Source of the DNA: Vairimorpha necatrix
Lineage: Eukaryota
DNA length: 64,000 bases
Reading direction: 5' to 3'
Assembly (NCBI GenBank): GCA_036630325.1
Contig: CP142731.1
Span: 1,116,001 to 1,180,000, forward strand
Shown: positions 2,326 to 46,675 of the stretch, piece after piece
Numbering within the stretch: the stretch's first letter is position 1
Layout of the letters: each line of letters opens with the position of its first letter
The notes under the pieces: model-generated
What the model saw: the letters and a program-made list of their open reading frames with translations, nothing else
What the model was told of the DNA's origin: nothing
Databases searched by the model: none
Made by a program: the position numbers and the translations under genes

Positions 2326-2374
2326 TGTGATATATTTGTATAATTTCTATCCCCCATTATGATAAATAAAGACA
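2326..2374 (+). repeat. 5' LTR of copy A (49 bp)
   Basis: TGTGATATATTTGTATAATTTCTATCCCCCATTATGATAAATAAAGACA, identical to 5496-5544. Confidence 0.95.
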
Positions 2375-5300: not shown

Positions 5301-5471
5301 AATTTAGCAGGTATTAATAAGTATGAAAAAGGAAGATTTTTGGATACAGGAAAAATTGTTGAAAAGTGTGGAAAGGATTCTTATATTGTAAAACTTAGTA
5401 ATGGTAGGCCTGTGAAGAAGAGACATTATGACCTGAAGGGTATGCTTGGGGTAGATGTGAAAATTAGATGA
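2359..5471 (+). pseudogene. gag-pol of copy A (CCHC knuckle, RT YMDD, RNase H TDAS, integrase HHCC/DDE), disrupted
   Basis: Three ORF pieces (2359-3264, 3237-3722, 3744-5471) are collinear with the intact ORF of copy B. There is a frameshift near 3237 and an in-frame TAA at 3720-3722 where copy B has Gln. Confidence 0.9.
2375..2392 (+). promoter_or_regulatory. Primer binding site, tRNA-Pro-like
   Basis: TGGGGGCGATACCGAATC lies directly after the LTR. The TGG-G-GGC start resembles known tRNA-Pro PBSs, and the first 13 nt are identical in copy B. The tRNA identity is inferred. Confidence 0.75.
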
Positions 5472-5495
5472 GACTAACCGTCTTGAGGGGGGGGA

Positions 5496-5544
5496 TGTGA
5501 TATATTTGTATAATTTCTATCCCCCATTATGATAAATAAAGACA
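5496..5544 (+). repeat. 3' LTR of copy A (49 bp)
   Basis: Exact repeat of 2326-2374, preceded by the PPT and followed by the TSD TGATA. Confidence 0.95.
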
Positions 5545-5959
5545 TGATATTTTAAAAAAACCCCAAAACGACAAAAAAAATCTTTAAATTTTAGGCATCC
5601 TTTGTTTTCTAGCCTTGCCTAGTATAAGACTACAAAAATAAAACTGGAGTTTTTTTACTGTACTGGACGGCGTTGCTCTTGTGATTTTGTTGGAGCAAAG
5701 CTATATAATATGGAAAAAGTAAAGGAAAGATTAGTATATAGTTGTATAAAACGAAAATGGAGGGCAAAAAACAGATTTTTTTGACATTAAGTTATTGCAG
5801 AAATTTATTTTTTGTTTTGCTCTCGATTCTTTGTCTAGCAAATAAAGATTAATTTTTAGTCTAACGGGTATGACAAATCTAATATTTTATAAATAAGCAT
5901 AAAAAAAAGGAAACATATTGGAAAGACACTGGAAAATAGTTAAAAAATCGGCCGATTAA

Positions 5960-6310: not shown

Positions 6311-7028
6311 TTAATTGGTCCGGAGTAAAACGGTGGATTTCGATATAGATTTTAGATTTTACTATAAGAAAAAATAAATAAAATATGTAAGTAATAACAT
6401 GGAGCCCGATATTTTATATTTTTATTAAATTATTTTTGATATTTTTCTTCAATTGTTGCTGGTTCATTTTTTGGAAACCGTAAAACAGAGAATCTTCGAT
6501 AAAACAGTATTTAAATAATCTTCACACTTTCTATTATGACACATTTCAATATTTTTTTAGCTGTGCACGTCTGTATAACCTTTGTAAATTTGATTGTAGT
6601 AAAAACTATTTCTTTCTTTCTTGAGGCGTTTATATCTTTCACAGAGGATAGAATGTTCTCTAGGCGTAATGTTAACTATTGGGGCTATAATAGCGGTTAA
6701 CTCTAATATAATTAATAACAGTCTCGAGTTAACTACTCTAAATCGAAAAATTCTCTTAGATCTCAAAATTAGACTGCACAAGACACTTAATTAACTTTTA
6801 AATAATTCTTTTAGCCAAAAAAAATGTTTTTTGTATTTTTTATTTATATTTTAATACTATTTTATTTGAGGCTTCTGGCTTTTTATATAAATTATCTTGT
6901 GTTTTATAGTGTATAGACCCCTACAATACCATATTTTTTTTCTGTTGAAATACTTTCCGATCTAAAAAATTCAAAACTCGATTCTGCCATTTTAAAAAAC
7001 GATCGAAGATCTATGTAATATTTCTAAA

Positions 7029-7230
7029 AAATTTTATAGATACTAAATGCTTTTTCAAATCAAAATAATTATGTAAATTTAGTGATGTTTTTTTAAATTT
7101 TATAGATAAAATACATGCTTTTTCAAATCAATATAATTATGTAAATTTAGTTATTTTTTTTCAAATTTTTTAGATAAATATATGCTTTTTCAAATCAAAA
7201 TAATAATGTAAATTTAGTGATTTTTTTAAA
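7029..7230. repeat. Tandem repeat, about 67-bp unit x3
   Basis: The core TAGATA..ATGCTTTTTCAAATCAA.ATAAT.ATGTAAATTTAGT is repeated three times and abuts the stop codon of the minus-strand gene. Confidence 0.9.
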
Positions 7231-8488
7231 AAAATTTTTTAGGGCAATAACGATGACGCCTGTAACATCTCATCTTGTAGAATCCATTGTCGATATAATC
7301 ATTATCAAATCTTCTTCCTGACTCGCCAATCTCGCTATTTTTTCTTTTGTCTTTCTTACTAATCGAACTAAATCTCAATTTTGATTTAAAATCAGCTTCG
7401 TAGGCTTGAGTTTTAACATCTGTATTTTTATCAATATTTTCTTGTGATATTAGACGGTATTTTTCATTTTTTTGATTATTTTCTTCAAAAGAACTTTCGC
7501 TCATTATCTCTTCATTCAAAAATCTTTTCTCTTCATATTCTTCAAACGATTCCGCATATTCGCTAGAATCTTGCTTTTCCCAAGAATCTCTTTCTTCATA
7601 TTCGACTTCGAGATTGTCTAACATATCTTCATATTTAAAAATAGCTTTTTGTGCTTCTTGTTTTTTCTTTTTGTCAGATTTGAAAAAATAAATACATTTT
7701 TCATATACAAAATTTGTTATGTAATTTATAAATTTTGAAAATCCATGATTACATAAATAATTAAAAACTGGGAATATAGCTATCGATGCATATGTATGAG
7801 ATCGCATTGCAAGGAGCACTACCGAATGCGTAATCAATAATTCCGATTCCTCATTTTTTTTTATATTTTCGAGGATTTCATTTGCATTTTCCTCTCTTGC
7901 CTTTTTTCTTCTGGCTTTTTCCATTTCTTCAAGGTTTTTTGTACAATAAAATGTTCGCCATCCAAAAGGAACAGTATTATATAGATTAATCCCTTCAAGT
8001 ATCTTGGATTTTCTGTCATTTGGTATATATGGCAACACTTCTGATCCTTTACTGTATTTAAGAGCACATAATAAATCAAATTTTATATAACTAAAATCCG
8101 CTTTGAATTTTTCTTTTTTGTATTTTTTCGTCAAAAACAAAGATGCTAATATAGGACTTGTTGATGTAATTAATTCTAAAAGAATAAATCGAGGAGTAAA
8201 ACCCAATTCTATATTCATAGCCAAACGTAAACAACCCAATATCCATTCCCGTTTTATTCCTTCTTCTGTTAGCTCTTGCTCTTTTTCTAATTCCTTTTTG
8301 ATAATTCTATCAAAATCTTTATTTTTACGTAAAGCTGTCCAAATTGGAGAGCAAAACAAATAATAATCTTCATTAATTTTTTTCTTAGCAAAATTTCTTC
8401 TTTCTGTGAGATTTTCTTGTTCAATGGTATTCAATTGGAATGATGTGATGATAAATGTCGTAATTATAATATAATCAAATAAATTCAT
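7226..8488 (-). CDS. Lineage-specific putative secreted protein (420 aa), paralog of 13714-14814
   Basis: Long ORF. The ATG at 8488 follows CCCC (the track start at 8503 is TTG). Hydrophobic N-terminus, acidic C-terminal region and motifs shared with the paralog. Confidence 0.85.
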   Translation of the reverse strand: MNLFDYIIITTFIITSFQLNTIEQENLTERRNFAKKKINEDYYLFCSPIWTALRKNKDFDRIIKKELEKEQELTEEGIKREWILGCLRLAMNIELGFTPRFILLELITSTSPILASLFLTKKYKKEKFKADFSYIKFDLLCALKYSKGSEVLPYIPNDRKSKILEGINLYNTVPFGWRTFYCTKNLEEMEKARRKKAREENANEILENIKKNEESELLITHSVVLLAMRSHTYASIAIFPVFNYLCNHGFSKFINYITNFVYEKCIYFFKSDKKKKQEAQKAIFKYEDMLDNLEVEYEERDSWEKQDSSEYAESFEEYEEKRFLNEEIMSESSFEENNQKNEKYRLISQENIDKNTDVKTQAYEADFKSKLRFSSISKKDKRKNSEIGESGRRFDNDYIDNGFYKMRCYRRHRYCPKKFF

Positions 8489-26359: not shown

Positions 26360-26766
26360 GATTTTTTTATTTTTGTCATGTATCCATGGGACATGGCTAT
26401 TTTTAGAATAGTTATAATGTAATTATATTCATTAGTGATTTTAATCTTTCTTTTAGCTTCTTTTCCTTCAAAGACAGACTTTCTTTTATATGTTATTTTT
26501 AATTTTTTCTTGTTGTCAACATAAACATTGGCGTACTTACGAATGTACTAACGACCATGCAGCTTTAGTTTGTTTTTTTGTATGACTTATCTTGACAGGC
26601 TACTTGAGATGGTTAACATGTCTATGGAAATATATGACAGGCGGCGTTTATTAATTTGTCCATGTGATGTAGCAATGTTCATCACAATTTTTTAAATGCT
26701 TAAAATTTTGCATTTGTATGATATGTTAAATTAAATAAAAAAAAATTTTTATTATATACCCCTAAA

Positions 26767-27753
26767 ATGCATTTTCTCTTTAATTTTATAAAGTGTACAC
26801 AATATAAATACGACGAAAACATTGTAGAAAATGTCATTATGCAAAAATCCGAAGATCACTTGAACTTTTTTACAACAAACGAAAATTCCAATCTTATTTA
26901 TAATTTTGATAAAAATTTATCAAGTCAAAATTTAGAGCATTTTGACTATGACTGTGATGATCCAACCTATTTAAAAAAAGATGTATTATTAGGGCAAAAG
27001 CTGAATGATGATCGTACTATTAAAAATCAATCTAACCAAAGTATTGGCGAGGTTTTTTTAAATATGGATTTAGAAACTGGAGAACTAGAAGAACTTTTTT
27101 GTTTTGAAACGAATATAAATCAATTAGAAGAGAGCAATACTTTAACGAACAATGAAAACATCAATCCATTTGCAAAATTATTAGAATGTAAAATCCAAAT
27201 AAAAAATTTTATAGAACGACAAAGATTAATATTAAGTAAAAAATCACAAGCTTATCCTATAATTAGAATGACTCCTGAAAAAGAAGCTCTTATTCGGAAT
27301 TACAATCGATTAATATATTGTTTCAAAAAAGATTTTATTTATAATTTAAACAATAGAAAACTGACAAAATTAAGTAAAATAATAAAAAATATAAATGTAT
27401 CTGATGAAACAAAGAAAATCATTATAGAGTTTTTAGATGTATTTAAATTATTTGTTTCGGCTTATGATAAGAGAAAAAACTTTTTACAACGCAAATTTTT
27501 AATTATAAAAAATTTGGTAGAAATAATTCGTTACAATATAGAGATAATGTCAATATTTAATTATATACCAATAATTGAAACTTTTGAAAATATTGATAAA
27601 CATGTAAGATTAAAAGAATATGAAAGTGACAAAAACAAAGAAGAAGTAATATCTATTTTAAATTCTATCAAAACTTCGTTGCACATTTTATGTGATAAAT
27701 CGTGCGAAATAAAAAAAGTCTATGAGAAATGCATTGAAATACTTTTAGAATAA
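26767..27753 (+). CDS. Expanded lineage-specific family ('DLET' family) member 1, putative secreted (328 aa)
   Basis: CCCCTAAAATG start; motifs DLET..LEE.F.FE, FKKDFIYNL, IRYNIEIMSIFNYIPII and YEKCIE are shared with the other copies. Confidence 0.88.
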   Translation: MHFLFNFIKCTQYKYDENIVENVIMQKSEDHLNFFTTNENSNLIYNFDKNLSSQNLEHFDYDCDDPTYLKKDVLLGQKLNDDRTIKNQSNQSIGEVFLNMDLETGELEELFCFETNINQLEESNTLTNNENINPFAKLLECKIQIKNFIERQRLILSKKSQAYPIIRMTPEKEALIRNYNRLIYCFKKDFIYNLNNRKLTKLSKIIKNINVSDETKKIIIEFLDVFKLFVSAYDKRKNFLQRKFLIIKNLVEIIRYNIEIMSIFNYIPIIETFENIDKHVRLKEYESDKNKEEVISILNSIKTSLHILCDKSCEIKKVYEKCIEILLE

Positions 27754-29751
27754 CATGTTTTATACAACTCCATTAAATGTTGTAATCATAGAAAGAAATT
27801 TAACGTGATTAAATTATTTATTTTATTTTAAGAGTACGGAAAAATATAAAAAATACAACAATCATTTAATGGCATATGTTTTCAAACCAGATATAAGAAC
27901 TAGGATAAAATAAGGATCTCTGAAAACATTGATTAAATTATTTTTACAATAATTGATACTACTAGAAATGTAAAAAGACATAGCGTATGTTAGAGTTAAA
28001 GGAATCTAATTTAAGTTAATGATGGGATGCAAATACATCACAATCCTGAGCAGAATATCAGAATAGCTTTTTTTCTAGTTTCTTTTCTCAGGTTGTGATT
28101 TTTCTACAAATCATAAGAACGACAACAAAAAGATTGTTCGAAAATTACTGATATATGCTTGGTATCAGGTCTGAAAAAAAAAACTTCTAAAAGTTTTCGA
28201 TGGATAAATATGTCAGATAAACATAAGACATTTTAAAAATGTCTTATTTTATTTGTTATAGTATTAAAAGGCTTTTTTAAATATTTTTATTTAGTGATAA
28301 TAACCAACTAAGATAAATATAATAAAATTGAAAAAAAAACTAATTTAAGAGTTATAAAAATATTTTATCGCCCATATCTTGTATATTTAACTAAATTATA
28401 TTTTTAAAAACGATTTAGCCATATATTTATAGATGGGACAAGTTTATGAAATTTGATGACGTTGATACCTTAGGAATTTCAAAAAATTTCTTGTTCATCC
28501 GCTCACGCTCTTTTTAAATTATCTGAAGATAAAAATACTCAAAAAAAATTTTTGAAACCAAAAAGCATATTACAAATAGCATACAAAAAAAATTCTCATG
28601 TTTTTACAAAATAAATTTCCTTTTATGAAATCGAACCCCAAAAATTATCATCTTCAAATTAAAAACTGAACCCCGATTGTCCCGTTAATTTTATAAAATT
28701 TATGCAGAAAAATAACGAAAAAGTGTACACATATAAATGGATGACGCTGGAATGAACAAAAACTTATCTGTAACTTTTATATAATATATAAAGACATGAC
28801 AGTCAACGTGTTAATTGTAAAATTTAGCGACTTTTTCATTCTTCGTTTATAAAAAATTTTTAATTACTACATATAAATTCATTAAAAACTTAATTATAAA
28901 ACAAGGCCAGATCGACTCCACTATTGTCATATATATTTTCCGAATAGTAATCACATCTATTAATAATAAATCCAAGAATTATATAAAAAATAAGAAATTT
29001 ACAATAATAAATAAAATTTCTGTTGTACTTTTCTTGTTTAATAAATTAAAACTTGAGACATGTTTTTTTTTCACAAAAATTTATATTTAGCCAATTATTA
29101 ATCTTAATTGTTTGTTCATATTTTTTTTCAAAGCATTAAACTTTTTTGAGTCTTTGATAAAAATAAATTTTGCCTTTTTTTATATTGTTTTATTTTTATA
29201 CTTAAAAAAAGATTCATTTACGTAACTATCAAATAAATTTTTCTAAGAATACTAGAAAAATTAAACTTTGTTTTAAAAAAACTAGTAAATCTGAGGTTTT
29301 TTTTATTTGTACAAAAAAAAATAAAAAATTGACATGTTTTACAAAAATAATAAAATTTTTGATGATTCCACTAAATCAAGCAAATATAAAGTAATTAATA
29401 TTAAATTTTTTATCCCATTTACCCTTTTTGACTGATTTTTATATCAAATTTTACCTCTTGTAGAATTAAGTTTGTCAATTAGGAATTAGTTTAAAGTAAT
29501 ACTGGGTTCTATACGTCATGAACAAAGTTGTTGTGGAATCCCCCTCAAAATAAATTCAAAAAAAATATTTTTTGAATACTTTTTGTGTTTAATAGTTTAA
29601 TAAATCCAAATATTATGTAATACAATTAATAAATTAATAAATATATTTCGCTCCCTTTAAAACTCTAAATATATGATAAACGCCATTTTGGGCTAATTTA
29701 ACTCCATATACTCGAAAAAATATTTATAAATTTTTTTTTATCGCCCCTAAA

Positions 29752-30823
29752 ATGATTTTTATATTTATATTTTTACTTTGTACGCAATTTGATGTCGATG
29801 AAAAAGATAAAGAGAATAAAAATAGGGAATATACGTTAAAAATTGTAGCAACTTAAGAGGATAAAATGCATGATTACGTGGATTACAATGAAAATTTTAT
29901 ATATAAAGTTAAAGAGTATAATGAACATGAAATTTTTGGTCCGAAGGACTTGAAAAATGAAATTATTATTAATAAAAAAACTCAAAATGACATTTTTTTA
30001 CAAGATGAAACACAAAGTAATTGTGATGATCCAGTCAAAAATCTTGATTTAGAAACAAGTGATTTAAAAAAAATTCATTGGTTTGAAGAGGACATAGACC
30101 AATTGCAAGAGAGTAATACCGCAAATGATAGACCAATTGAGACTTCTGAACGAAAATTGCTGAAAGAATTAAAAAACGAAATAGAAAAATTTAGGAAAGA
30201 GAGGATATTTAATTTAGTTACAGAAAAAGGACCGCGTAATAAAAATATTGTGAATAAAAAAACAAAAGGGCTCATAAAAAAAAAGAATTGTGACATTCTC
30301 GAGTTCAAAAAAGATTTTATATACAACTTGAAGAATAAAGAATTAAAGAAACTGCGCAAATTGATTTTACACGCCTATATTCCTGCCGATGTTAAGATCG
30401 TACTTTTAGAAATTATTGAAGTTTTTAAATCTTTCATTGGGGGTTACAAAAATAGAAAAAATCTTTTAACCAAAAAAAAAAATAAACAGGACAAACATGG
30501 TACTTATGATACGTTTTAATATAGAAATAATGTCCATTTTTGATTATATACCAATATTTGAAATTTTTTCTAAAATAAGAGATATAATTATCCAAAGAAA
30601 TTATGAAAATCACACAATCAAACACAACGTAGTCAAATTTTTTATTAAGATTTTTAAACATTTACAAGAATTGCATAAAAAGTCAAAAGATATAATAAAA
30701 ACATATGAGGAATGTATTGAGCTATATGAGAAAAAAACAGATATTATAAATAGAAATATACAAAAAAACTTTAACACATCAAGATTCTTTTATTTTAGAC
30801 TAGACAATGCCTATCTGTTTTAA
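29752..30823 (+). pseudogene. DLET family member 2, disrupted
   Basis: CCCCTAAAATG start; TAA at 29854-29856 where the paralog has GAA; frameshift around the A11 run at 30472-30482. Confidence 0.85.
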
Positions 30824-31389
30824 AGACGGGATTTATATATTTTTAGATATGTTACTCTTTTATTTTATTAGTTTCTATTTTGGAATTGTGAAATGTAAAA
30901 GAAGAAATTATGTTGAAAAAAAATAAAATATTTCTCAAGATGTCAATAGTAGCGAATTATGTAAAAAACGGTTATTATTGCCGTGTCGAGTTAGTCTCGG
31001 GACAATAATTAGTGAACTTGTTAGAAGAAGGTGAATTTTGAGTTAATAGTTTATTACTCTTTGTACCCTTCTTAGGGTATTTTGCTTATTTACTTTTACT
31101 AGGCGTTTCCTTCTAATTAAAGCATTTTTACGGAAAATAAGTAGAACTAAAGTCTTAGAAAAATGTGTAAAACACACAATTGTAACATGTTATTTGGAAT
31201 TCCCTAAGACGATAAATATCTCATTCGTTCCAAACAAATACAGAATTCATTATTACTGGAAATTCTTAGAGTCACGTAGGTTTACCACATGACAGGTTTT
31301 CTATGTTTTTTAAAAAGCACTAAACCTACTTTGACTTTTCTAAGAAATAAAATTTGCATTATGCTTGAGAAATGTTTTATTTGAATAAT

Positions 31390-31690
31390 TAAGTGGTATT
31401 ATTTACCATATTATTTTTATCCCTCCGAATGAATTTTTTAGATTAAATTTTACTATAACTTTTTCTGTTTATTTTATCCTAATTAAAATGTCTAGAAAAG
31501 CAGAGGAGTACAAGCAACAGCAAGACAAATCACTGTTTCCTTTGAGGAGGGAAAATAATCCTCACGGAGGCTACTACAATAAAACTAATATAATTAAACA
31601 CAATATTCTAGCACCGAGAGAAGCATCATAGAATGCTATCTGAGGAATGAATAACTGCCGGGCAATGCCTCAAAATTAAACAAAGATTTG
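31390..31690 (+). repeat. Decayed homolog of the solo LTR at 44610-44920
   Basis: Shares GTGGTATTATTTACCA, TCCCTCC.A.TGAATTTT and GAGAAGCAT....GAATGCTAT with the reverse complement of 44610-44920. Confidence 0.7.
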
Positions 31691-32183
31691 TTTGATCATC
31701 TATCAAAATCTATTTTTTAGTGAATAAAAAAAATTTTACTAAATGAAAAACTTGTAAATCTGAGTTTTGATCATTGTATAATTTGAACAAATTAAAAAAA
31801 TAATAAATTTTTGATGTTTCGCAAACAGCAAAATTAAAAAAATTGATTATTCATTTTTTTAACTCTTTTTTATTAATTATCTTTTTAAATTTACATAGAC
31901 TAAAATTAAATTTGTCAATTAGGAGTTTCTTTCAGAAAGAATTTGTTTTTACTCTATTAAACAGAGTTTTTTTAGAACAAACCACAAAATTAATTTAAAA
32001 AATATTTCTATATAATATGAATATGCTTTTTATTTATATAAATAAAAATTTAATGGTATACAACATCTATATTATAAAAAAGGATTGCATTCTTAAAAAA
32101 TTTTTAAAATATTATTATTGCCATTTAGAGCTAATTATGGCCGATACCCTCGAAAAGTTATTTGGATTTTTTACGCCCCTAAA

Positions 32184-33179
32184 ATGATTTTTAATTTGTT
32201 ATTTTTATTTTGTACGGAAGTTGATGTCAATAATAAAGATAATAAAAATAGAGAATACACGTCAGAATTTGTAACAATTGAAGAGGATAAAATGTTTGAT
32301 TACGTTGATTACAATGAAAATCTATCTTATAAAACTAATGAGTGTAATGAATATGAGAATAGTGTTCCGATGGAATTGAGAAATGATATACTTTTAAATC
32401 AAAATTCACTTCATACCATCTTTTTACAAGATACAACACAAAGCAATTGTGATTATATAGTTTTAAGTGTTGATTTAGAAACAAGCGATTTAGAAGAAAT
32501 TTATCAGTTTGAGATGGACATAGACCAATCGCAAGAGAGTATTATGACAACAAATATTCACTGTGAAACTTCTGAACAATTTTTGCTAGCAGAATTAAAA
32601 AAGAAAATTGAAGAATTTATAAAACAGAAAAAATTTGAATTAGACAAAAAAAATGCACCGCTTGAAAAAATTTATCTGAATGAAAAAGCACAAAAGCTTG
32701 TAAAAAATTATAACGACACAATACTTGAGTTTAAAAAAAATTTTACTTACAGATTGAAAAAATTAAAATTGAATAAACTGCGCGAAATAATCGCTTACTC
32801 GAAAATTCCTGCTGATGTTAAGACCGTACTTCATAAAATTATTGAAGTTTTTAAACTTTTAATTAAGAGTTACGACAATAGGAAAAATTTTATAACTTTT
32901 AAAAATATAACAAATCAAAAAATGATACTTATGCTACGTAATAATATAGAAATTATGTCCATATTAAATTATATACCAATATTAAAAACTTTTAAAGAAA
33001 TAAAAGAGAAAACATTGCTAAGAAATTATGACACTATAGAAATTGAAAACAAAATAAAAGATTTTTACGAAAATCTTTTTATATATTTACAGGAATTGTA
33101 TAATAAGTCAGTAGAAATAATAGAAACATATGAAAAATGTATTATTTTATATGAAAAAAAAACCAGATATAATAACTAG
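32184..33179 (+). CDS. DLET family member 3, putative secreted (331 aa)
   Basis: CCCCTAAAATG start at 32184 (the track start is TTG); MIFNLLFLFCT hydrophobic N-terminus; close paralog of member 2. Confidence 0.88.
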   Translation: MIFNLLFLFCTEVDVNNKDNKNREYTSEFVTIEEDKMFDYVDYNENLSYKTNECNEYENSVPMELRNDILLNQNSLHTIFLQDTTQSNCDYIVLSVDLETSDLEEIYQFEMDIDQSQESIMTTNIHCETSEQFLLAELKKKIEEFIKQKKFELDKKNAPLEKIYLNEKAQKLVKNYNDTILEFKKNFTYRLKKLKLNKLREIIAYSKIPADVKTVLHKIIEVFKLLIKSYDNRKNFITFKNITNQKMILMLRNNIEIMSILNYIPILKTFKEIKEKTLLRNYDTIEIENKIKDFYENLFIYLQELYNKSVEIIETYEKCIILYEKKTRYNN

Positions 33180-34856
33180 AAATAAACAAAAAACCTCAAC
33201 ACTTCAAGATTCTTTTAATATAAACCAGACGATGCTTTTTTGTTTCAAAGGCGGTATTACAATATTTTTTTATATGTTACTCTTTTATATTTTATTAAAT
33301 CCACTTTTCGGGAATGAGGATTAAAAAAAACAACTTATGTTGCTAAATAAATTTTTTTATTAATATCAATAAAACCAAAATATGTTAAAAACATTTATTA
33401 TTTTTAATGAAAATATTGTAAAATTATTAAGCTTGATTTTGACACTTACTTTACAAAATGTTCGACACTGAAGTTAATTATAATTTTTTGTGGAAAGGCT
33501 AAATAAATTCTAAAAAACGATTTAAACGATATTTTAAAAATTACGCAAGCAAACTATAATTTATGTATACAATATAGAGCCGAAATTTTTCAAATTTTTT
33601 TTTGAAAACTTGTTTTTTGATATTTATAATTTTATTGAATTTAAATAAGTGATGTAGAGATTTTCAGCCAAATTAGAGAAGGTAAAAGTAAAACAAATTT
33701 CTTGGTTTTTTGATTAATAAAGTTTATGCTTATTAATTTAGATATTTTAAATTGTTGGTAATCTCGGAGACTATATAGGAAATCATTTTTAAGGCGAAAA
33801 GTAAAATTAGAAAGAGTCTTTGTTTTTCAAAGCAGTCGTGTGTTGTTTTAATGCGATGTCACTAGATTAAAATCCCATAGGACTACCTTTTTATTCCAAT
33901 AAAAAAAAATCCATAGAACAATATTAGTTTTTTATTATGGGTCTACAGTAAATTTTTTGTTTTATTACATGATAATGTATGATTTTTTTGGTAGTTTTTT
34001 TTAAGCATAAAAAAGAAATATATTTGAGATGTATACAAATTTTATTTTAATTATTTTTTATTAATTTTTAAATTCTGAGCTTTACAGGAGCCAATTAAAA
34101 GTTTTTCGTTCAGTTTTAATTTCTTTTTTTTCATATTTCTTATATTAGTTTTGTTGTCGAGAAGAATCATTATCGGTCTCTGTTTTTTCATCTTGGGTGG
34201 TCAGATTTCTCATAAGTTATACATGTGTATCGTAACCACTAAGATGCTATTTACAAGACTTCCAATAATTTTTGCAACAACTCTTTGCTTCAATCCTTTA
34301 AATATTGTAGTTTTAATATGCAATTCATTCGTTATATATTGCCAAATTTTTAGTTATATAGCAGGAAGAATATGCCCACTTAGATCCATAAGAATTTACC
34401 TTTAAAATGGCCAAATAGATATTAAAATGTCCATACAACCTTTTAATAAAAACAAATATAAATAAATGCTTTCGTATTTATTCGAATTATATGCAAATAT
34501 AAGTAAAAATCACATATTTATTTCTACTTATAAAATCATTTCTCCCGTACAGTAAATATGGAATAGATAGTAACTAATTTTTTAAAACTAAAAAAATTAT
34601 AGTAATCTAAAAGAATACAGGATTCATCGATAAGTAAAAAAGAGCTATACTTCAAAAAACAAAATTATATAACTAAATTAAAATAATTGTAAAATATCAG
34701 AACATTTTTTTGACCAATTATATAAATCTAATATTATTATATAATTATGAAGCACCTTTAAAATACATAAATCGAATTTATTAAGTCTTTTCTATTTAAT
34801 AACAAGTTTAGCTTTGTACGCAAAAAACTTTAAAAAAACAATATCAATATCCCTTT

Positions 34857-35330: not shown

Positions 35331-35688
35331 AAATCTCTTTAAAAGTAAAAATTTTGTCGGGAAAATTTCAACAGAATAGTCTGGTTTAGAACTGAATAAA
35401 ACAAAAAAATGAAGCAATAGAAAAGAAGGATTTTTTATATGTGTTTTTGAGCATAAAGTATTTTTTCTCTCACGCAAACTGCAAATACTGATTAGAAGTG
35501 GAAAGATACCAAAATAATGTTTATAAATAAACGTGTACTAGCACAAATGACAATTAAAAGGATAAGATGACTTTTGTTGTCAGTTCTACTTAAAATGTTT
35601 AATGAAGTTAAAATACTTGTAATGTTGGATGTCTTAACTAAAATATAATGTAAACATGGGATAATGAGAATAGTGTGTTAATATAAGT

Positions 35689-38600
35689 TGTATTTATTTA
35701 TCATAATGGGGGTAAAAATTATCAAAATATATAACATCCCCCCTCCAAGACGGTTAGTCTCACTTTATCCTTAACCCAAGCAGACTTTTTAGATCATAGT
35801 GCCTTTTCTTTACATATCTTCCATTTACTAACTTAACTATATAAGAATCATTGCCACATCTCTCTATAATTTTCCCACTCTCTAAAAACCTACCTTTCGA
35901 ATATTTATCCGCACCTTTCAAGTTTTCCTTCTTAGCTACTCTCACGTACTCACCTACTTTAAATTTTTCCCTTTTCCCCCTGTTAAACAGTTTTCCATAT
36001 TTCCCTTGTGGGCTATTTTCAATCATTACATGTCCAGTTTTATCCTCTGTCGCTTCTATTGGTGTACATTTTAGTGCCGTGTGGTAACTCATATTATATT
36101 TTTCAATGCTTCCCATGACCTTCTCTGCAAATGTACCTTCTTTAGTCTTCAGAATGCTCTCTCGCAGCGTACCTATAACCCTCTCGACTCTGCCATTACT
36201 CCTGTGTGATTCGACACTTACTTTCCTATGTTTAATTTCTAGTCTGTTACACAACTCTCTAAACCCCTCATTGATAAATTCTCGCCCATTATCCGTTATA
36301 ATCTCTTCGGGCTTTTTTCCTTGTTCACACAACTTACTTAAAAATTCTGTCACATTCTTTCCAGTCTTGTTCTCCATTACCGTGCCCCATACTCTTCGAG
36401 TGTAATAATCTATCGCAACCAATACGTATTTACCTGCGTCTCTAAAATCAATGAGATCCAAAGCAACCTTTTCTAAATAACGTGTAGTATCTACAAACTC
36501 ACATCCACCGAGTCTTTTTCTATTATATATTTGACATTGTACACACTTTCGAATTGTCTCATTTATGTCTTTCTTTATTCCGGGCCAATAAAATCTTTCC
36601 CGCATCGCGTAATATACACTTGTCATACATCTATGTCCAACTTTTTCGTGGTATTCCTGCATCAAACTTTCCCTTGACTCTTCTGGTGGTATCTCGACTT
36701 TCCGTCCTGAATCAAATCTCCAATATTTTTTTCCTTCTGCGTCATCGACGTGCGCTTTCCATTTGCCCTCTATCTGCTTGGCGGTCCTTTCTCTGATTTT
36801 CTTTTTCCTTTCATCGTCTTCCATATGTATCCTGCTTAACGCGTCAGCCACCACCATTTCTTCTGGTTTCTTATATTCTATGGTGAAGTCAAATTCCTGG
36901 ATCTTTTCAATCCATCTATTTATTCTATTGTTATTAAAACACGGTTTATTTCTAATCTCAACCAAGGCTTTATGGTCCGTCTCGATTTTAAACTTCCTAC
37001 CGCGCAACTCGTATTCAAATCTTTTTATCCCCCAAAATACCGCGTACATTTCTTTCTCCGATATAGTATATCTGGTCTCTGTAGGTGTTAACTTTTTTGA
37101 ACTCCATTGGATTGCTACCCATTCATCTTTATCGTTCTTCTGAAGTAACACGGCTCCTATCCCTACATTGCTCGCGTCCGTTCTCAATATAAATTCCTTC
37201 CTATAATCAGGCAATCTAAGTTTCCCCATCGCTCTCAAAACTTCTTTCAGCTCTAAAAACTCTCTATTCATTTCAACCGTCCATTCCCACTTCTTATCTT
37301 TACCTCTCAAGCTATCTGTCAGATGAATAGTTAATCCCGCGTAATTCTTTATAAAGTTCCTAAACCATCCTGTCATTCCTAGGAATCTTCGTGTTTCACT
37401 TACACTTGTCGGCTGCGGGAATTCTAACGCCTCGTTCTTCTTTATTTCATTCGCTTCAATATCTGTACCATTCAATGTGACTCCTAAGAGCTTAACTAAC
37501 TGTTGGCTAAACTGTATCTTCTCAATATTCAATCTCATTTTATGTCTTTTTAATCTTTCCAATGCTTCTATAACTAGCTTGTCATGCCTTCTTTTAGTTC
37601 TAGCGTGTATAACGATGTCGTCCATATATACCTCCACTCCTTCTCCTTGTAAATCTTCAAATATTTGGTTCATTATTCGTTGTAATATCTGCGGGGAATT
37701 TTTATATCCCATTACCATACTGTTCCATTCATATACCTTTCTGTTAAATTCAAAGGCCGTTTTGTGCTTATCCTCTTCTTCAATCTCTACGTGGTAAAAG
37801 CCTTCCTTCAGATCTATAACGGTAAACCATTTAGACCCCTGTGTGGCTCTAACGATGTCCCTAATATTTGACAACTCATACGGATCTTTTTCAACTAAGT
37901 CATTTAAACTCATTAGATTACTTACAAGCCTTACTCCTCCGTTAGGTTTTACTATAGCTCTAATTGGGTTTCTCCACTCGGATGTTGATCTTCTTATAAT
38001 CTTTCTTTCTTCCAAACTTTTTATATATTTTTCAGTTTTTTCCATCAACGCCTGTGGGATAGTTTGTCCTCTTTTAACTACTTTTTTTCCTGGTGGCGTC
38101 TCAATTTTACATTTCTCTATCTTACAGTGTACGATCTCTTCGTGCTGCAAGTCAAAAATTTCTCTAAACTTCGCTTTTATATCTTCAATGACAAGGCCCT
38201 CTTCTATTCTATCCTCTCTCATTCCTCTCCTTTTTGAATTTTGTTTACGTTTTGCTTCTCCGCATTTCCTATATTCTTGTGCGCTAAGTTCTGTGCTTGT
38301 TGATCCACTCTCTTCATGAACCCTTAAATACTTGTTAAAATGTTTATTTTTATTATCTTCTTCTTTCCTCTTCCTTACGAAGCAATCTCTTGCCATGTGC
38401 CCGAATCTACCACAGTAAAAACAATCTCTACTTCTTACTCTCGTAGTTTCTTCCCTTATTTTTCCTAATGCTCCTCTATTTGCCAGCTCCTCTCGAACTG
38501 TTCCTCTAACCGACTCTGCAATTATTTCCATCATCTTACTTTTGTCTTCTTCTTCCTTCTTTTTTAATTCGTCCTTTCTAACCTCCTTTTCCATTTCTTC

Positions 38601-38863
38601 AATAATTAAGGACCAACTATCTTCTTTTTTAATTCTTTCTACCATAAAGTTCTTTACTTCTTCCGAACCCATTTCATAAATTCTTGCCTTCCATAGAGAC
38701 TCATCTACTCCATCCAACTCTAGCTTATAAACTATTCTTTTAATTTCTTGTAACATTATTCTGGCCTCTTGACCACAGCCATCACTTGTTGACTCTCGAT
38801 TTGGTATCGCCCCCATGTATTTATTTATCATAATGGGGGTAAAAATTATCAAAATATATAACA
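35689..38863 (-). mobile_element. Ty3/gypsy LTR retrotransposon, miniature protease-less type, copy B (3175 bp; intact)
   Basis: Identical 48-bp LTRs at 35689-35736 and 38816-38863; TSD TAAGT at 35684-35688 and 38864-38868; PBS TGGGGGCGATACCAAATC at 38798-38815; PPT GGAGGGGGGA at 35737-35746. Confidence 0.98.
35760..38831 (-). CDS. Single gag-pol polyprotein (1023 aa): short gag, CCHC knuckle, RT, RNase H, integrase
   Basis: CFYCGRFGHMARDC; IDLKEGFYH and YMDD; TDAS and ADALSR; H-x4-H..CxxC; ALDLID, ITDNG and RVERV. The start is placed at the CCCCCATTATG shared with copy A. Confidence 0.95.
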   Translation of the reverse strand: MINKYMGAIPNRESTSDGCGQEARIMLQEIKRIVYKLELDGVDESLWKARIYEMGSEEVKNFMVERIKKEDSWSLIIEEMEKEVRKDELKKKEEEDKSKMMEIIAESVRGTVREELANRGALGKIREETTRVRSRDCFYCGRFGHMARDCFVRKRKEEDNKNKHFNKYLRVHEESGSTSTELSAQEYRKCGEAKRKQNSKRRGMREDRIEEGLVIEDIKAKFREIFDLQHEEIVHCKIEKCKIETPPGKKVVKRGQTIPQALMEKTEKYIKSLEERKIIRRSTSEWRNPIRAIVKPNGGVRLVSNLMSLNDLVEKDPYELSNIRDIVRATQGSKWFTVIDLKEGFYHVEIEEEDKHKTAFEFNRKVYEWNSMVMGYKNSPQILQRIMNQIFEDLQGEGVEVYMDDIVIHARTKRRHDKLVIEALERLKRHKMRLNIEKIQFSQQLVKLLGVTLNGTDIEANEIKKNEALEFPQPTSVSETRRFLGMTGWFRNFIKNYAGLTIHLTDSLRGKDKKWEWTVEMNREFLELKEVLRAMGKLRLPDYRKEFILRTDASNVGIGAVLLQKNDKDEWVAIQWSSKKLTPTETRYTISEKEMYAVFWGIKRFEYELRGRKFKIETDHKALVEIRNKPCFNNNRINRWIEKIQEFDFTIEYKKPEEMVVADALSRIHMEDDERKKKIRERTAKQIEGKWKAHVDDAEGKKYWRFDSGRKVEIPPEESRESLMQEYHEKVGHRCMTSVYYAMRERFYWPGIKKDINETIRKCVQCQIYNRKRLGGCEFVDTTRYLEKVALDLIDFRDAGKYVLVAIDYYTRRVWGTVMENKTGKNVTEFLSKLCEQGKKPEEIITDNGREFINEGFRELCNRLEIKHRKVSVESHRSNGRVERVIGTLRESILKTKEGTFAEKVMGSIEKYNMSYHTALKCTPIEATEDKTGHVMIENSPQGKYGKLFNRGKREKFKVGEYVRVAKKENLKGADKYSKGRFLESGKIIERCGNDSYIVKLVNGRYVKKRHYDLKSLLGLRIK

Positions 38864-39729
38864 TAAGTTAATAAGATAAATAGCTTAGTAATAGGCTAAT
38901 TCTTTTTTTCCCATTGACAATGTTGTATGCATGAGAAAATTAATTTTGTTGTCTTCGATATCGATATTATCATATTATCTGGTATTGTTATAAGTGATTA
39001 TGAAAATATTCAAAACATAATGGATTACGCGTATGTAATAACATTAACTACGTTTTTGTTCGTTAATTTTTTAATTGCTTGTAAGTTATAAAATGTATTT
39101 CCAACTTTTGGTATGTATCCCTTACAAAAATCGAAAATACTGTCTGTTTTGAGTAAATTCCCCTTTTCTTTTAAAAAAGAACTTTTTAGCTAATTATTAA
39201 AAAATTAAATATATTATATTGAGTCGGTTTTTTAGGGCTAAGACATTTTGTATAAAGTTTTTTTGTGCCGTCTACATTTTTAAACTCTTCATGAACATAA
39301 AAATGACATGAAAAACTTTAAAAAAATTTACCTTGAAATGCAGATTATTTAAATATAATTAAAAAACAATCTGATAAATTATTTTTTTCTATATAATAAT
39401 TTTTTATACAAAATATGAGAAAAAAAATTGAGTTGTGTTAAAATCCTATTACTTTTTTAAAAAAAATAAGAGTCTTGCCACTTTTTATAAAGAATTTCTA
39501 TTTTAACAATAATCTCTTAATTTTTTATATCAAAATGTGAATGTATCTTAATGAATAAAAATCTACATCTAATTTTTATGGTTTCGTTATAGCTGCATTG
39601 TATGAATTTTAATATGTTAAGGTTTTTTTAGTTTAATACGCAACTTATCTAAAATGCACAAAAATAAAATATTATTCTAATTTGTGTAAATACAATTTCT
39701 TATAAAAAACGAAATATTTAATTCCTAAA

Positions 39730-40724: not shown

Positions 40725-40829
40725 TCATAAATTACAAAAGAAATATTCTTTTTTGAATAACACTAAAAATATTTTGTATTTATATAAAAAGAGATAATGA
40801 GTTAAATAGTCATTAGTCTTAAATAGTTA

Positions 40830-41085
40830 AAGCACAGGTTTCCTCGGTATCGCTCATAAGATTTGGCTCTTCGCAGACTTTGGTTTCTGTGGTTTTATCA
40901 TGTTTTCAACTCCAACTTTTCAGTTTAATTTTCATTTATTAACACCGCCTCTTTAACAGTCGCCGTTCGTTAGTCGCTTACAGCTCTAGCCCGTTCTTCC
41001 TCTCCTACATTCTCCTGATCGTACCCTCGTCGTCGTTTGAAAAAAGAGATAGACTCTTGAGTCTTCTTCAGCACAATAGACTAGT
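40830..41085 (-). mobile_element. 3' fragment of an RLE-type non-LTR retrotransposon
   Basis: Homologous to 57300-57555 (CAGACTTTGGTTTCTGTGG, CCTGATCGTA.CCTCGTCGTCGTT). Confidence 0.85.
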
Positions 41086-41199
41086 TGTTTGCTTGAAGGT
41101 TGTTTTGTATTTGTAAAATTTAAAATTATTTATAATTTTATTTTTTATTTGCGGCACGGGTATTTTGAAACCTTACATATGAATTAGTGAAGTTTGGGT

Positions 41200-43765: not shown

Positions 43766-44596
43766 ATGGAAAATATCAATAAAATTATTAACAGTGATTT
43801 TCAAATCATCTTAAAAAGCGATGTATTTTTTTATCAAAGTTCAACACACGATACTATTACGCAGGATCAAAATATCTATTACGACAATGACATAATTAAA
43901 AATGTCGATTTGGGCATAGATAAACCAGAAGAAATCTTTTGGTTTGAAATGGACATAGATAAATTACAAAAAAGCAATCTGACAACAAGTAAACAAATCA
44001 AGGCCGAAAGTTTAAAGGTATTAATGGAATGTAAAAATAAGATTAAAAAAATTATAAACGAGACTGAATTAAAATTTAACAACGAATCAAGACCAAGTAG
44101 AAAAAATAAATTAGATCGTAGTAAAAAGCAGAAAATTGTCGATTCTAATAAATTTTTTTCGGGGTTCAGAAATAATTACATTTATAGACTTAAGAAAATA
44201 TATTTGCCCAGAACATGCAGACTTATAGATATCATTGATGTATCAAATAATGTTAAGAATATAATTAAAGAATTTGTAAATATATTTAAATTTTTAATAA
44301 CAGTACATGAGAAGAGAGAAAAAATTACGCATAACAGAAATATAACATTAGAAAATATTCTTAATACAGTGCATTACAATATAAAGTTAATGTCTATATA
44401 TGATGACAAACAAATAATTGAAACATTAAGTAAAATAAAAGAAGATTTAAACCAACAAAATTACAAAAATTACTCAATCAAAGAAGAGATAATAATTTTG
44501 CTAAATTCAATAATTAATAACTTACATATCTTATTTGATAAATCGAAAAAATTAAAAGAAATATATGAAGAGTGTATTGAATCATTAAACAAATAA
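43766..44596 (+). CDS. DLET family member, N-terminally truncated (276 aa, no hydrophobic leader)
   Basis: VDLGIDKPEEIFWFEMDID, HYNIKLMSI and YEECIE motifs; ATG preceded by GGGG. It may be a truncated pseudogene. Confidence 0.7.
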   Translation: MENINKIINSDFQIILKSDVFFYQSSTHDTITQDQNIYYDNDIIKNVDLGIDKPEEIFWFEMDIDKLQKSNLTTSKQIKAESLKVLMECKNKIKKIINETELKFNNESRPSRKNKLDRSKKQKIVDSNKFFSGFRNNYIYRLKKIYLPRTCRLIDIIDVSNNVKNIIKEFVNIFKFLITVHEKREKITHNRNITLENILNTVHYNIKLMSIYDDKQIIETLSKIKEDLNQQNYKNYSIKEEIIILLNSIINNLHILFDKSKKLKEIYEECIESLNK

Positions 44597-44609
44597 TAAA
44601 AATACATAT

Positions 44610-45130: not shown

Positions 45131-45470
45131 AGGTTTATAGCCCAAATTGTATATTATCACATTAATAATAAAAGCATCTACGTATTGAATAAAAAAGCAT
45201 GTAAAAAACAATGTTTTCCTATATGTAAATGTGTAAAATTACTTAAGCGAGTCAGTATTGTAAATAAGACATTGTAAACCACCATCATATAGAATTTATG
45301 AGTCCTAAAAGATAAATTTGCTATAAGTTTTCACAAAATATTTTTTCAACCATTTTATCACAAAAACATAATATTAAGTTAGCTTTTTTTAATATCAACA
45401 AAACTAAGTTACTAGTAGAAAATAAATTTTAGGAACATAGGAGTTTCTTTGAGATAATTTATCATTAAGA

Positions 45471-46675
45471 CTAGATATTCATAGCACTTTTCCCCCGGTA
45501 TCGGCAATGAAATTCAGCTCTTCACAGACTTTGGTTTCTGTGGAATTATTAATACTTTCCAACTTCACTTTTTCAGCTTCATTTTTCTTTACCGACACCA
45601 CTTCTTTAACAGTCGCCATATTCACTAGTGTGCTTACAGCTCTAACCACTTATTCTCCTGCATCCTCCTGATCGTATCCTCGTCGTCGTTCCAAAAAGAT
45701 GGACTCTAGAGTCTTCTTCATAACAATAGACTGGATATATGCTTCAAGGTAGGGTTGGATTTCCAGCCCTGTGTACTTTCTGTGATATTTGGTCACCACT
45801 CCATTCCTTGTCATTACTAAAGAACTATTATGTTCCAGGATTATGTATTAGTCCCAGTTCATTTGCAAGATGGTCATATTTTCTTAGTTTTTCATTCAAA
45901 ACTATAATAAGTCGACCTTAGTGGTTCTACCAGCTTCAACTATTAAAATTTCTTTCTTCTCCTTGTAAACACAAGAATATCAGGCTTATTATGAGTCACC
46001 TTTTGATTTTATGATATCCTCGTATCTACTCTTATTTCCGCACGATCATTTTCTATGATTTCCTGATTGAGTGTCCACGTATTTTCTTTGTCTTCTCAAC
46101 CCCATATTTAATACATAGTAAAAGATGAATGCATCTAACTACCTCGTTGTGTCTTTTCATATAATCAAAACCCAACATTCGATCACACTTGGTAGCTAAA
46201 TGATCCACGGTCTTCCTATGAGATCCACAATGGGACATTGTCTCTCTTGTCCACATCAGATATTTCTAACCTGTAGGAAGCAGTAAATTGCTTCGGATCT
46301 AGCCCGATTGTTTCCTTTAACCAGACAGGTAGAAGAGTCCCCATGCTTACTAAATCGTTACCCCTAGCTTTAAACAACTTTCCATGATTTGTACTTATTT
46401 AAATTTTGTTGTAAAGCGCTTATTTTTGGGATTCTATCAGCATCTTCAAGGTAATCTCTCCTACAAAGCTATACCTAATCCTTAGACACTCGTTAATTGT
46501 AAACATGTGGGATTTGCTCTCTGCCTCTACCTTAAGTATCGCTTCCCGTTATAGTGAGCTATAATTAGACTCATCTAATGTTTTATAAATAGTCAGAAGC
46601 ATACTTTCGCATCTATCTTTGATACTTTTGAGGCCTTTACCCAGTTTTGATCTAGGTAGGTATAGTCTTTCCTGC
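45471..46675 (-). mobile_element. 5'-truncated, degenerate RLE-type (R2/R4-group) non-LTR retrotransposon
   Basis: ERLYLPRSKLGKGL, CCHC knuckle (CGSHRKTVDHLATKC), KRHNEVV, NKPDIL and EKLRKY restriction-like endonuclease motifs, with frameshifts. Confidence 0.9.

Follow-up and report, generated by a model that had tools for sequence, protein, structure and literature searches.

Two probable insertions, one decayed and one intact, of an ultra-compact Ty3/gypsy-lineage retrotransposon with 48-49-bp LTRs in a microsporidian genome

The data presented here suggest, with a probability of roughly 80% that covers identity and structure, that copies A and B are two insertions, one decayed and one intact, of an ultra-compact LTR retrotransposon of the Ty3/gypsy lineage, hosted by a microsporidian of the Vairimorpha/Nosema clade. 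Both lie in the window, by which we mean the whole 64-kb stretch of DNA that was analysed. Insertion was of the integrase type, with TG..CA ends, 5-bp target site duplications (TSDs) and a polymorphic empty site. The next-best named match of the host CHD gene is from V. bombi (76%). The parts of the two copies are as follows.

Copy A
2326-5544, plus strand: the element, with a broken coding region
2321-2325: left TSD, TGATA
2326-2374, plus strand: 5' LTR, 49 bp, TG..CA, identical to the 3' LTR at 49/49 positions
2375-2387, plus strand: primer binding site (PBS), TGGGGGCGATACC, directly after the 5' LTR
2359-5471, plus strand: coding region, broken into three ORF pieces
5470-5495, plus strand: inverted repeat (5470-5484) and polypurine tract (PPT; 5485-5495, GAGGGGGGGGA) adjoining the 3' LTR
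5496-5544, plus strand: 3' LTR, 49 bp, TG..CA
5545-5549: right TSD, TGATA

Copy B
35689-38863, minus strand: the element, intact, 3175 bp
35684-35688: left TSD, TAAGT on the plus strand; one copy is retained in the empty-site contig of public run X1
35689-35736, minus strand: 3' LTR, 48 bp, TG..CA, identical to the 5' LTR at 48/48 positions
35737-35746, minus strand: PPT, GGAGGGGGGA in element orientation, adjoining the 3' LTR
35747-35761, minus strand: GAGAC..GTCTT inverted repeat next to the PPT on its 5' side, overlapping the stop codon
35760-38831, minus strand: intact ORF with Gag-like region, CCHC, reverse transcriptase (RT), RNase H and integrase; no protease
38803-38815, minus strand: PBS, TGGGGGCGATACC, in the coding frame (codons G-A-I-P), identical in copy A
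38816-38863, minus strand: 5' LTR with AATTTTT, CCCCC, an ATG 3 nt on, AATAAA and a terminal ..ACA
38864-38868: right TSD, TAAGT on the plus strand

The terminal structures of the original prediction, i.e. identical TG..CA LTRs of 48 or 49 bp, perfect 5-bp TSDs, a PBS and a PPT, were all recovered in both copies, as was the copy B ORF of 3072 of 3175 bp when counted from the ATG within the LTR. The copy B frame is without a stop across 35760-38864 and comprises 1023 codons from the in-LTR ATG, or 1018 from the ATG on the LTR/PBS junction (protein P0001); about 97% of the element thus encodes one Gag(CCHC)-RT-RNase H-integrase polyprotein. Copy A carries a frame change near 3238 and an in-frame TAA at 3720-3722. 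Over their whole length the copies share 69% DNA identity, and in the LTR approximately 88%, the latter figure being a hand count on the same alignment. All four occurrences of the LTR core motif in the window fall at the four LTRs (0.01 expected, from 100 shuffles), and no solo LTR was found in the 64 kb. The PPT consists of 10-11 purines, mostly G, adjoining the 3' LTR in copies A and B and in the metagenome relative L013, with one C within the tract of a further relative, L003. Common to these four is also the GAGAC..GTCTT motif, which is translated as the "ET.." tails of family proteins.

The following domains were placed in the copy B polyprotein.

38382-38423, minus strand: CCHC zinc knuckle, residues 132-145 (PF00098, E 9.3e-5)
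37473-37952, minus strand: RT core, residues 289-448 (RVT_1, 7e-33; Ty3 RT 4ol8)
36891-37208, minus strand: RNase H, residues 537-642 (RT_RNaseH, 6.2e-32)
36225-36689, minus strand: integrase zinc-binding domain and catalytic core, residues 710-864 (Integrase_H2C2, 5e-16; rve, 1.7e-14)

The RT-RNase H-integrase order and the closest solved structures (Ty3 Gag-Pol 7q5b_A, E 1.9e-67; 4ol8_A, 6.5e-57) uphold the proposed assignment to Ty3/gypsy. An ORF described as RT-RNase H-integrase does contain these domains; the description was incomplete, having overlooked the Gag-like N-terminus with its CCHC knuckle and the absence of a protease. Ahead of the RT, the AlphaFold model predicts only helices, the knuckle and a disordered stretch at residues 155-206. 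Residues 9-87 gave weak matches to the Arc CTD (Z 6.2, rmsd 3.7, 70 residues aligned), the Arc C-lobe (Z 5.8) and the Ty3 CA-NTD (Z 5.4), all of them below the noise of helical models, and a wide structure search (VIA) with the N-terminus returned middling helical matches only (best Z 6.8). Foldseek found no match for the N-terminal fold at E <= 0.001, and RT entries only for the whole copy B model; Pfam at E <= 10 returned the knuckle and chance matches for the N-terminus. In the Atlas the N-terminus leads to Gag clusters with a score of 0.88 (all below 0.9). A chromodomain at the integrase C-terminus was sought in P0001 and 27 family proteins, and no Chromo match was obtained.

That a streamlined lineage with tiny LTRs had integrated at least twice is borne out by the two TSD-flanked integrations, and by metagenome relatives with LTRs of 38-58 bp. 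L003 has paired 39-bp LTRs and the TSD TTATA. L014, which belongs to a sister family, has paired 58-bp LTRs with AAATTT, AATAAA, CCC and a junction ATG, and no matching TSD; unpaired putative LTRs, of 38, 47 and 49 bp, occur in further relatives. Every LTR of the family reads TGT..ACA and is followed by TGG, which places an ATG on the LTR/PBS junction, and AATAAA is present in 7/7. Contigs of approximately 3.1 kb encoding family proteins were rejected as evidence of short LTRs, since a repeated LTR of any length makes assembly graphs break within it. The nearest named homologs of the element are from V. necatrix, V. ceranae, N. granulosis, Enteropsectra and Nematocida, and relatives in V. necatrix carry the annotations "reverse transcriptase" and "endonuclease". 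Bins with the bacterial labels Clostridium, Turicibacter and Aeromonas also contain such elements, on contaminant contigs. Loci L005-L012, at 24-32% identity, come from a viral collection.

As far as motif, length, predicted model and tree indicate, the copy A/B family is without a protease. Retropepsin Pfam models matched none of 27 full-length family proteins, a negative that is weak when taken alone since Pfam at E <= 0.01 also missed the protease of L014. In P0001 the stretch from CCHC to RT contains no D[ST]G. Among 38 family proteins with a complete N-terminus, a hand count located the motif upstream of the RT in a single one, and there at an unsuitable distance. In the sister group, hydrophobic-D[ST]G-[AS] is found 85-118 residues before the RT in 15/15 N-complete proteins, and the protease region of L014 forms an extra, unaligned 99 residues. 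The predicted models show no beta-rich domain before the RT. In the tree (FastTree, midpoint-rooted, with 45 of 126 outgroup rows used) the two families group together as a clade (SH-like 100), the protease-less family is a single clade of 48 rows, and P0152, in which the motif is present, is sister to it with a support of 99. The protease would accordingly be placed as a loss on the stem of the copy A/B family. The polyprotein may then work unprocessed, or a cellular protease may cut the disordered 155-206 linker; alternatively, it may borrow the protease of the sister family in the same genomes. We put the chance that the element is independent of a protease at slightly below even.

The borrowing alternative would make the element semi-autonomous, dependent on the protease, and perhaps the particles, of a co-resident sister family. 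Such a partner is present in V. necatrix, where P0149 combines CCHC with VTFDSGSYY and P0146 is another member, and protease-less L013 shares a metagenome bin with L014. However, co-occurrence is seen in these two cases only, and the protease-less family is diverse and retains long intact ORFs (27 full-length proteins aligned, a 48-row clade), so that we consider dependence rather doubtful.

Insertion polymorphism, which had been suggested as a check, was found for copy B. A 177-nt contig of X1 joins 35689 to 38873 and retains one TSD copy; this is an empty-site allele, and it both fixes the ends of copy B and makes the insertion polymorphic. A 3101-nt contig from the same run differs from copy B at 9 sites; its depth sums to 20, compared with 2-4 for the flanks, depth here not being copy number. 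In run X2 coverage is confined to the element and very uneven in depth, and a contig with a loose end at the LTR edge 38864 continues into a different flank; as evidence of expression this coverage was set aside, the library type not being on record. Runs X3 and X4 yielded only short or diverged pieces. The broken state of copy A would be expected if both copies were dead relics of an extinct family, the copy B ORF being intact by chance and not through current activity. This is improbable in view of the 3072-nt open frame, identical LTRs and perfect TSD of copy B, the empty allele at its site, and the X1 contig with its 9 differences and its depth above that of the flanks.

How LTRs of this size might serve a working element is suggested by their content. 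The LTR reads AATTTTTACCCCCATT and then ATG; it contains AATTT, a C-run, an ATG within 3 nt and AATAAA. Host gene starts in the window are alike in one respect: CCC lies no more than 20 nt upstream of the ATG in 8 of the 11 non-element ORFs of at least 200 aa, compared with background rates of 4.9% at random positions and 5.1% at all ATGs. Passages of PMC10759460 report CCC/GGG in 77% of V. necatrix genes, and those of PMC2803860 describe 5'UTRs shorter than 7 nt, a CCC-like motif immediately before the starts, a signal resembling AAATTT and the use of AAUAAA, and list near-identical upstream strings from N. ceranae. Judged from these strings, the LTR appears to copy the microsporidian mini-promoter, and it also holds AATAAA. 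We infer that an LTR of only 48-49 bp is possible because microsporidian promoters are tiny.

According to the mechanism that we propose, U3 would be the first approximately 30 nt (AT-rich, with AATTT and the C-run), a copy of the host core promoter, and transcripts would begin no more than a few nt from the C-run. R would be the remaining 17-22 nt or so, with the first ATG and AATAAA, leaving little or no U5. The reading frame begins within the LTR and the PBS is itself coding; a tRNA would anneal to this coding PBS adjoining the LTR, a very short strong-stop DNA would transfer to the 3' LTR, and the G-rich PPT would prime plus-strand synthesis. The division into U3 and R is put forward tentatively, at a little under one chance in two. 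Contrary to this layout of R, only 4 nt separate AATAAA from the end of the LTR in copies A and B, so that at the usual distance cleavage would be expected in flanking DNA. In L003 and L014 AATAAA is upstream of the C-run, so that one R layout does not fit all members, and the C-run is absent in 2/7 LTRs (L015 and L002-reverse), both single LTRs that are possibly decayed.

The primer for reverse transcription is probably a host tRNA. A 13-nt PBS beginning with TGG directly follows the 5' LTR in both copies, and its start appears to resemble the PBS of proline-tRNA-primed retroviruses. Zero tRNA genes were found in the window and in 9 related loci; loci L004, L016 and L017 were scanned for tRNAs, and L017 also for repeats. 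An alternative is self-priming as in Tf1, in which the 5' end of the transcript folds back on the PBS without a tRNA. It draws on CCCCCA (the C-run plus A) in the LTRs of copies A and B, which complements the first 6 nt of the PBS from 18 nt away. The match, however, is just 6 nt, whereas a Tf1-type complement is approximately 11 nt. Moreover, the PBS is different in L003, L014, L015 and L002-reverse (TGGCACCC.., TGGTGGAG.., TGGCAACA..), the LTRs of these four are without a PBS complement on inspection of the strings, and every PBS begins with TGG, as expected for pairing with the CCA end of a tRNA. We regard self-priming as quite improbable and retain a host tRNA as the likely primer.

It is highly improbable that the 48-49-bp repeats belong to longer LTRs as their inner ends, or that they were produced by misassembly: the flanks of copies A and B are unrelated past the TSD, the empty-site contig removes exactly one LTR-to-LTR unit and one TSD copy, X2 contigs exit the LTR at 38864 into other sequence, and the unrelated metagenome copy L003 has the same layout. 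The fear that shared extended flanks would reveal longer LTRs is thereby put to rest.

Copies A and B as an ultra-compact Ty3/gypsy-lineage element would show that an autonomous LTR element can shrink alongside its host's promoters, here to approximately 3.2 kb of which 97% is coding. The elements would offer a natural system for the minimum length of R and U3 in strand transfer, and likewise a natural means of testing whether a protease is dispensable to an LTR element. A far-reaching and rather unlikely extension is that an LTR can shrink no further than in this clade and still work (38-58 bp, with U3 only a core promoter of some 25-30 nt, R of at most 20 nt, translation initiating within the LTR and a PBS that is also coding sequence). 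One branch of the clade would then be the first case of LTR retrotransposons that spread while lacking their own protease, by means of an unprocessed Gag-RT-RNase H-integrase fusion nearer to a ribonucleoprotein than to a virus-like particle. Standard finders run with a minimum LTR of 100 bp (as in the "-minlenltr 100" setting of the LTR_retriever preprint) would leave such elements out of their structural output, so that in microsporidian repeat annotation they may be listed as RT or integrase genes and nothing more.

Among known systems, Tf1/sushi elements resemble copies A and B in their single Gag-Pol ORF and in a short complement between LTR and PBS, the difference being that the complement here is 6 nt and is absent in relatives. 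Tf1 has a protease. Ty3 of Saccharomyces (Metaviridae) shares the domain order, the 5-bp TSD and the CCHC nucleocapsid, and is the best solved relative for RT-RNase H and integrase. It has approximately 585 residues before the RT alignment point against 235 in copy B, which has no protease and at most one capsid-lobe-like bundle. The LTRs of Ty3 are several hundred bp long, and Ty3 targets Pol III genes; the window holds no tRNA gene. The sister family (L014-like; P0132-P0152) belongs to the same clade and is likewise compact (~3.3-3.4 kb) with tiny LTRs, but its members keep a DTG/DSG protease (15/15 N-complete), are about 50-100 residues longer in protein, and have the CCHC in only some cases.

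It had been supposed that the lineage may be undescribed, yet at the protein level it has already been published (Parisot 2014, PMC4202319; Xu 2006, through citing papers). Parisot and co-workers describe, in the text portions of that paper, three microsporidia-specific Ty3/gypsy groups in which a single polyprotein ORF takes the place of separate gag and pol, and the Nbr elements of Nosema bombycis (Xu 2006, via citing papers) are microsporidian Ty3/gypsy as well. Both are like copies A and B in their microsporidian host, RT-RNase H-integrase and single polyprotein, and the V. ceranae and V. necatrix homologs are of the same protein family. In those portions PMC4202319 gives no LTR length and does not use the word "protease", and PMC7313128 makes no mention of LTR, gypsy, protease or Ty3. 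A literature text search, with Xu 2006 and the Parisot figures and supplements outside its scope, found no LTR size or protease loss for microsporidian elements. Passages of PMC2474625 (Gill 2008, on the authority of Xu 2006) credit almost every N. bombycis element with a protease, which would count against protease loss if those elements were of the copy A/B family; the latter has none.

Very short LTRs, 5-bp TSDs and TG..CA ends are shared with the SMART (FRetro129) and TRIM elements of plants. FRetro129, called the smallest LTR retrotransposon in the pertinent part of PMC3281118, measures 292 bp with 85-bp LTRs. These plant elements are non-coding and non-autonomous, and the LTRs of their putative autonomous partners are given there as 105-163 bp. 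Membership in TRIM, SMART or LARD, which do not code for RT or integrase, does not hold for an element whose RT-RNase H-integrase ORF is intact in copy B. The copy A/B clade, by contrast, has still shorter LTRs (38-58 bp) and encodes its own RT, RNase H and integrase.

Copies A and B are real, recently mobile, ultra-compact members of a known microsporidian Ty3/gypsy lineage. Their ends are as the original prediction had described them, with identical TG..CA LTRs in each copy, perfect 5-bp TSDs, and a PBS and PPT adjoining the 5' and 3' LTRs, respectively.

2326-5544, + strand: copy A; LTRs of 49 bp, 49/49 identical; TSD TGATA
35689-38863, - strand: copy B; LTRs of 48 bp, 48/48 identical; TSD TAAGT on the + strand

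A 20-nt LTR core occurs in the window only at these four LTRs (0.01 expected by chance), all of which have TG..CA ends. TGGGGGCGATACC lies directly inside the 5' LTR of both copies, identical in the two, and a purine tract of 10-11 nt, mostly G, directly precedes each 3' LTR. Overall the copies share only 69% DNA identity (protein: Gag 47%, RT 78%, RH-IN 72%), against ∼88% for their LTRs (hand count on the alignment), and thus the element ends are the best-kept DNA. Copy B retains the predicted single open frame, which begins in the LTR (3072 nt from the ATG there, 1018 codons from the LTR/PBS-junction ATG) and runs through the PBS; in copy A, a change of frame near 3238 and a TAA in frame at 3720-3722 interrupt the coding region. 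Just 5' of the polypurine tract, and overlapping the stop codon, is a GAGAC-loop-GTCTT inverted repeat (5470-5484, 35747-35761). It recurs in the related loci L003 (∼3628-3650) and L013 (∼2698-2712), is kept between family members only ∼50% identical in protein, and may act in cis in PPT use, in forming the 3' end or in packaging.

Neither longer shared flanks nor a collapsed assembly, either of which would have undermined the prediction, was found in the public sequencing runs X1 and X2. A 177-nt X1 contig joins 35689 to 38873, skipping 3183 bases and keeping one TSD copy. This is an empty-site allele; the insertion is polymorphic, and the inserted unit is exactly LTR-to-LTR plus one TSD copy. 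Between the flanks of this contig and the window there are 7 mismatched positions and one gap, a divergence that fits a different haplotype or strain. Another X1 contig, of 3101 nt, matches the copy B interior with 9 differences, and an X2 contig continues past the LTR edge at 38864 with unrelated sequence, marking another insertion site. The V. necatrix genome is described as tetraploid, with haplotypes ∼96% identical and 28.3% G+C (PMC10759460, in the part covered).

Together with this description, named homologs indicate that the host is a Vairimorpha/Nosema-clade microsporidian, most probably V. necatrix or a near relative. The window is AT-rich (G+C 22-38% per 2 kb) and its microsporidian genes include those for a CHD-type helicase, a Brix protein and a BAR protein. 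For the helicase, the next-best named relatives come from Vairimorpha bombi (76% identity) and Nosema bombycis (67%). Tandem paralogous genes of ∼220-330 aa, spaced 2.4-3.0 kb apart, occupy 26750-33300, with a fourth copy 11 kb off at 43766-44600; none matched Pfam, and CCCCTAAA precedes every start in this family. A dispersed repeat of ∼500 bp (45419-45922 versus 57237-57749, 74-96% identical) has a third, partial copy at 40774-41117, and three tandem copies of a 67-68-bp unit (7015-7232) lie at the 3' end of ORF 7226-8488 (- strand).

Tiny LTRs characterize the family, with lengths of 38-58 bp.

L003, metagenome contig, 50% protein identity: LTRs of 39 bp, 38/39 identical; TSD TTATA; element 3163 bp
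L014, 229-3592, sister family: LTRs of 58 bp, 58/58 identical; element 3364 bp
L013, L015 and a reverse-oriented copy in L002: putative single LTR ends of 38, 47 and 49 bp, one end seen only

No matching TSD was found in the flanks of L014 (AATAC versus GTTTG), which, given this mismatch, may be recombinant or a chimeric contig. All seven LTRs, including those of copies A and B, start with TGT and end with ACA followed by TGG, so that the LTR/PBS junction always falls within an ATG; AATAAA is present in 7/7 and a C-run in 5/7. Family proteins begin M-[A/G/V]; in many of them another M lies in frame, five or six codons further upstream, matching the ATG inside the LTR, and several extend into 'ET..GG..' tails, which are the inverted repeat, PPT and LTR start read as codons. 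At ∼1040-1110 of L002 (the same sequence starts L001) the LTR and PBS of the reversed element abut the RNase H region of another copy, an apparent nested insertion. These eukaryotic retrotransposons also occur on contigs binned under the MAG names Clostridium sp., Turicibacter sp. and Aeromonas sp. (L013-L017; P0024, P0132, P0151), which looks like bacterial bins contaminated with microsporidian DNA.

The copy B protein, P0001, has the following Pfam domains.

Residues 132-145: CCHC knuckle
Residues 289-448: RT
Residues 537-642: RNase H
Residues 710-766: integrase zinc domain
Residues 786-864: integrase core

Its best solved relative is Ty3 Gag-Pol (7q5b_A, E 1.9e-67; 4ol8_A, 6.5e-57), and structure comparison confirmed the RT fold. 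The N-terminal 127 residues are predicted to form four helices, the last very long. Residues 9-87 weakly resemble single capsid lobes (Arc CTD, Z 6.2; Arc C-lobe, Z 5.8; Ty3 CA-NTD, Z 5.4), below the noise level of helical models, so a capsid-lobe remnant is a lead rather than a finding.

Several lines of evidence agree that the family to which copies A and B belong has no protease; the loss is a derived trait and took place on the family's stem. Knuckle and RT are only ∼90 residues apart in P0001, 155-206 being predicted disordered, and the predicted structure has no beta domain between them. The retropepsin Pfam model matched 0/27 full-length family proteins, which alone is weak evidence because Pfam also overlooked the protease of L014, whose 1088-aa ORF, without CCHC, reads LLDTGAQ..ILGKK. 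By hand count, D[ST]G occurs upstream of RT in one of the 38 N-terminally complete family proteins, at the wrong distance (37 residues from the RT point). Decisive is the contrast with the sister family, where hydrophobic-D[ST]G-[AS] is found in 15/15 N-complete members, 85-118 residues before RT, and alignment of L014 with P0001 places 99 extra residues exactly at the protease position. A midpoint-rooted FastTree phylogeny was built on the RT-RH region from 111 rows, with 45 of the 126 outgroup rows. It groups both compact families in a single clade (SH-like 100); the protease-less family occupies one side of a branch (93), and its sister is P0152 (99), which carries the protease motif.

The polyprotein may function uncleaved, or a cellular enzyme may cut it within the disordered linker. 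A second option is processing by the protease that the sister family supplies; this is found in V. necatrix (P0149) and in the metagenome bin that contains the protease-less L013. We lean slightly towards protease independence, since the family is broad and its ORFs are long and intact.

The shortness of the LTRs could be explained by mimicry of a host mini-promoter. CCC lies ≤20 nt upstream of the ATG in 8/11 non-element window ORFs of at least 200 aa (8488 on the - strand, 13714, 15809, 17969, 18928, 19970, 26767, 32184), usually after an AAATTT-like run; the background figures are 4.9% for random positions and 5.1% for all ATGs. One further ORF, at 43766, has GGGG. This signal can help to annotate start codons in this genome. 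In the parts of these papers covered, Svedberg 2024 reports CCC/GGG in 77% of V. necatrix genes (PMC10759460), and Peyretaillade 2009 mapped E. cuniculi 5'UTRs at <7 nt and gives N. ceranae ribosomal-protein upstream strings that almost match the LTR sequence (PMC2803860).

The LTRs of copies A and B read AATTTTT-A-CCCCC-ATT-ATG..AATAAA..ACA, and their likeness to host gene starts suggests a layout. U3 would be ∼30 nt of host-type core promoter, transcription would start at or just past the C-run, R would be the remaining 17-22 nt, and U5 would be close to zero. With this layout, the cleavage site downstream of the 3' AATAAA would lie a few nt inside the flanking DNA, at no cost to strand transfer. 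A retroviral R of about a dozen nt suffices for strand transfer. AATAAA precedes the C-run in L003 and L014, which would imply a different, even shorter R there. Tf1-like self-priming by the transcript 5' end is unlikely: in copies A and B, 6 nt of possible pairing link the C-run to the PBS, but no such complement exists in the LTRs of L003, L014, L015 and the reversed L002 copy. Every PBS begins TGG and the remainder varies between sublineages, as expected with different tRNA primers; a scan of the window and of nine related loci gave no tRNA genes.

The suggestion that the lineage might be undescribed did not hold, as microsporidian Ty3/gypsy elements have been in print since 2006. For N. 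ceranae, Cornman 2009 reports elements of the gypsy type; the V. ceranae homolog belongs to the family of copies A and B. In the parts covered, Parisot 2014 rebuilt consensus elements 'with LTRs at both extremities', sorted them into three groups specific to microsporidia and emphasized their single polyprotein (PMC4202319), and Gill 2008, citing Xu 2006, assigns a protease to nearly all N. bombycis elements (PMC2474625). The parts of the literature covered mention neither LTR length nor a missing protease for microsporidian elements; an earlier description is possible. A minimum LTR of 100 bp is a common setting for LTRharvest, in line with what the prediction had stated of common LTR finders. 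The features deserving attention are LTRs that appear to mimic a host mini-promoter, a frame starting in the LTR and continuing through the PBS, and derived protease loss. The plant 'smallest LTR retrotransposon', in the part of its description covered, is non-coding and has LTRs of 85 bp (PMC3281118), compared with 38-58 bp here.
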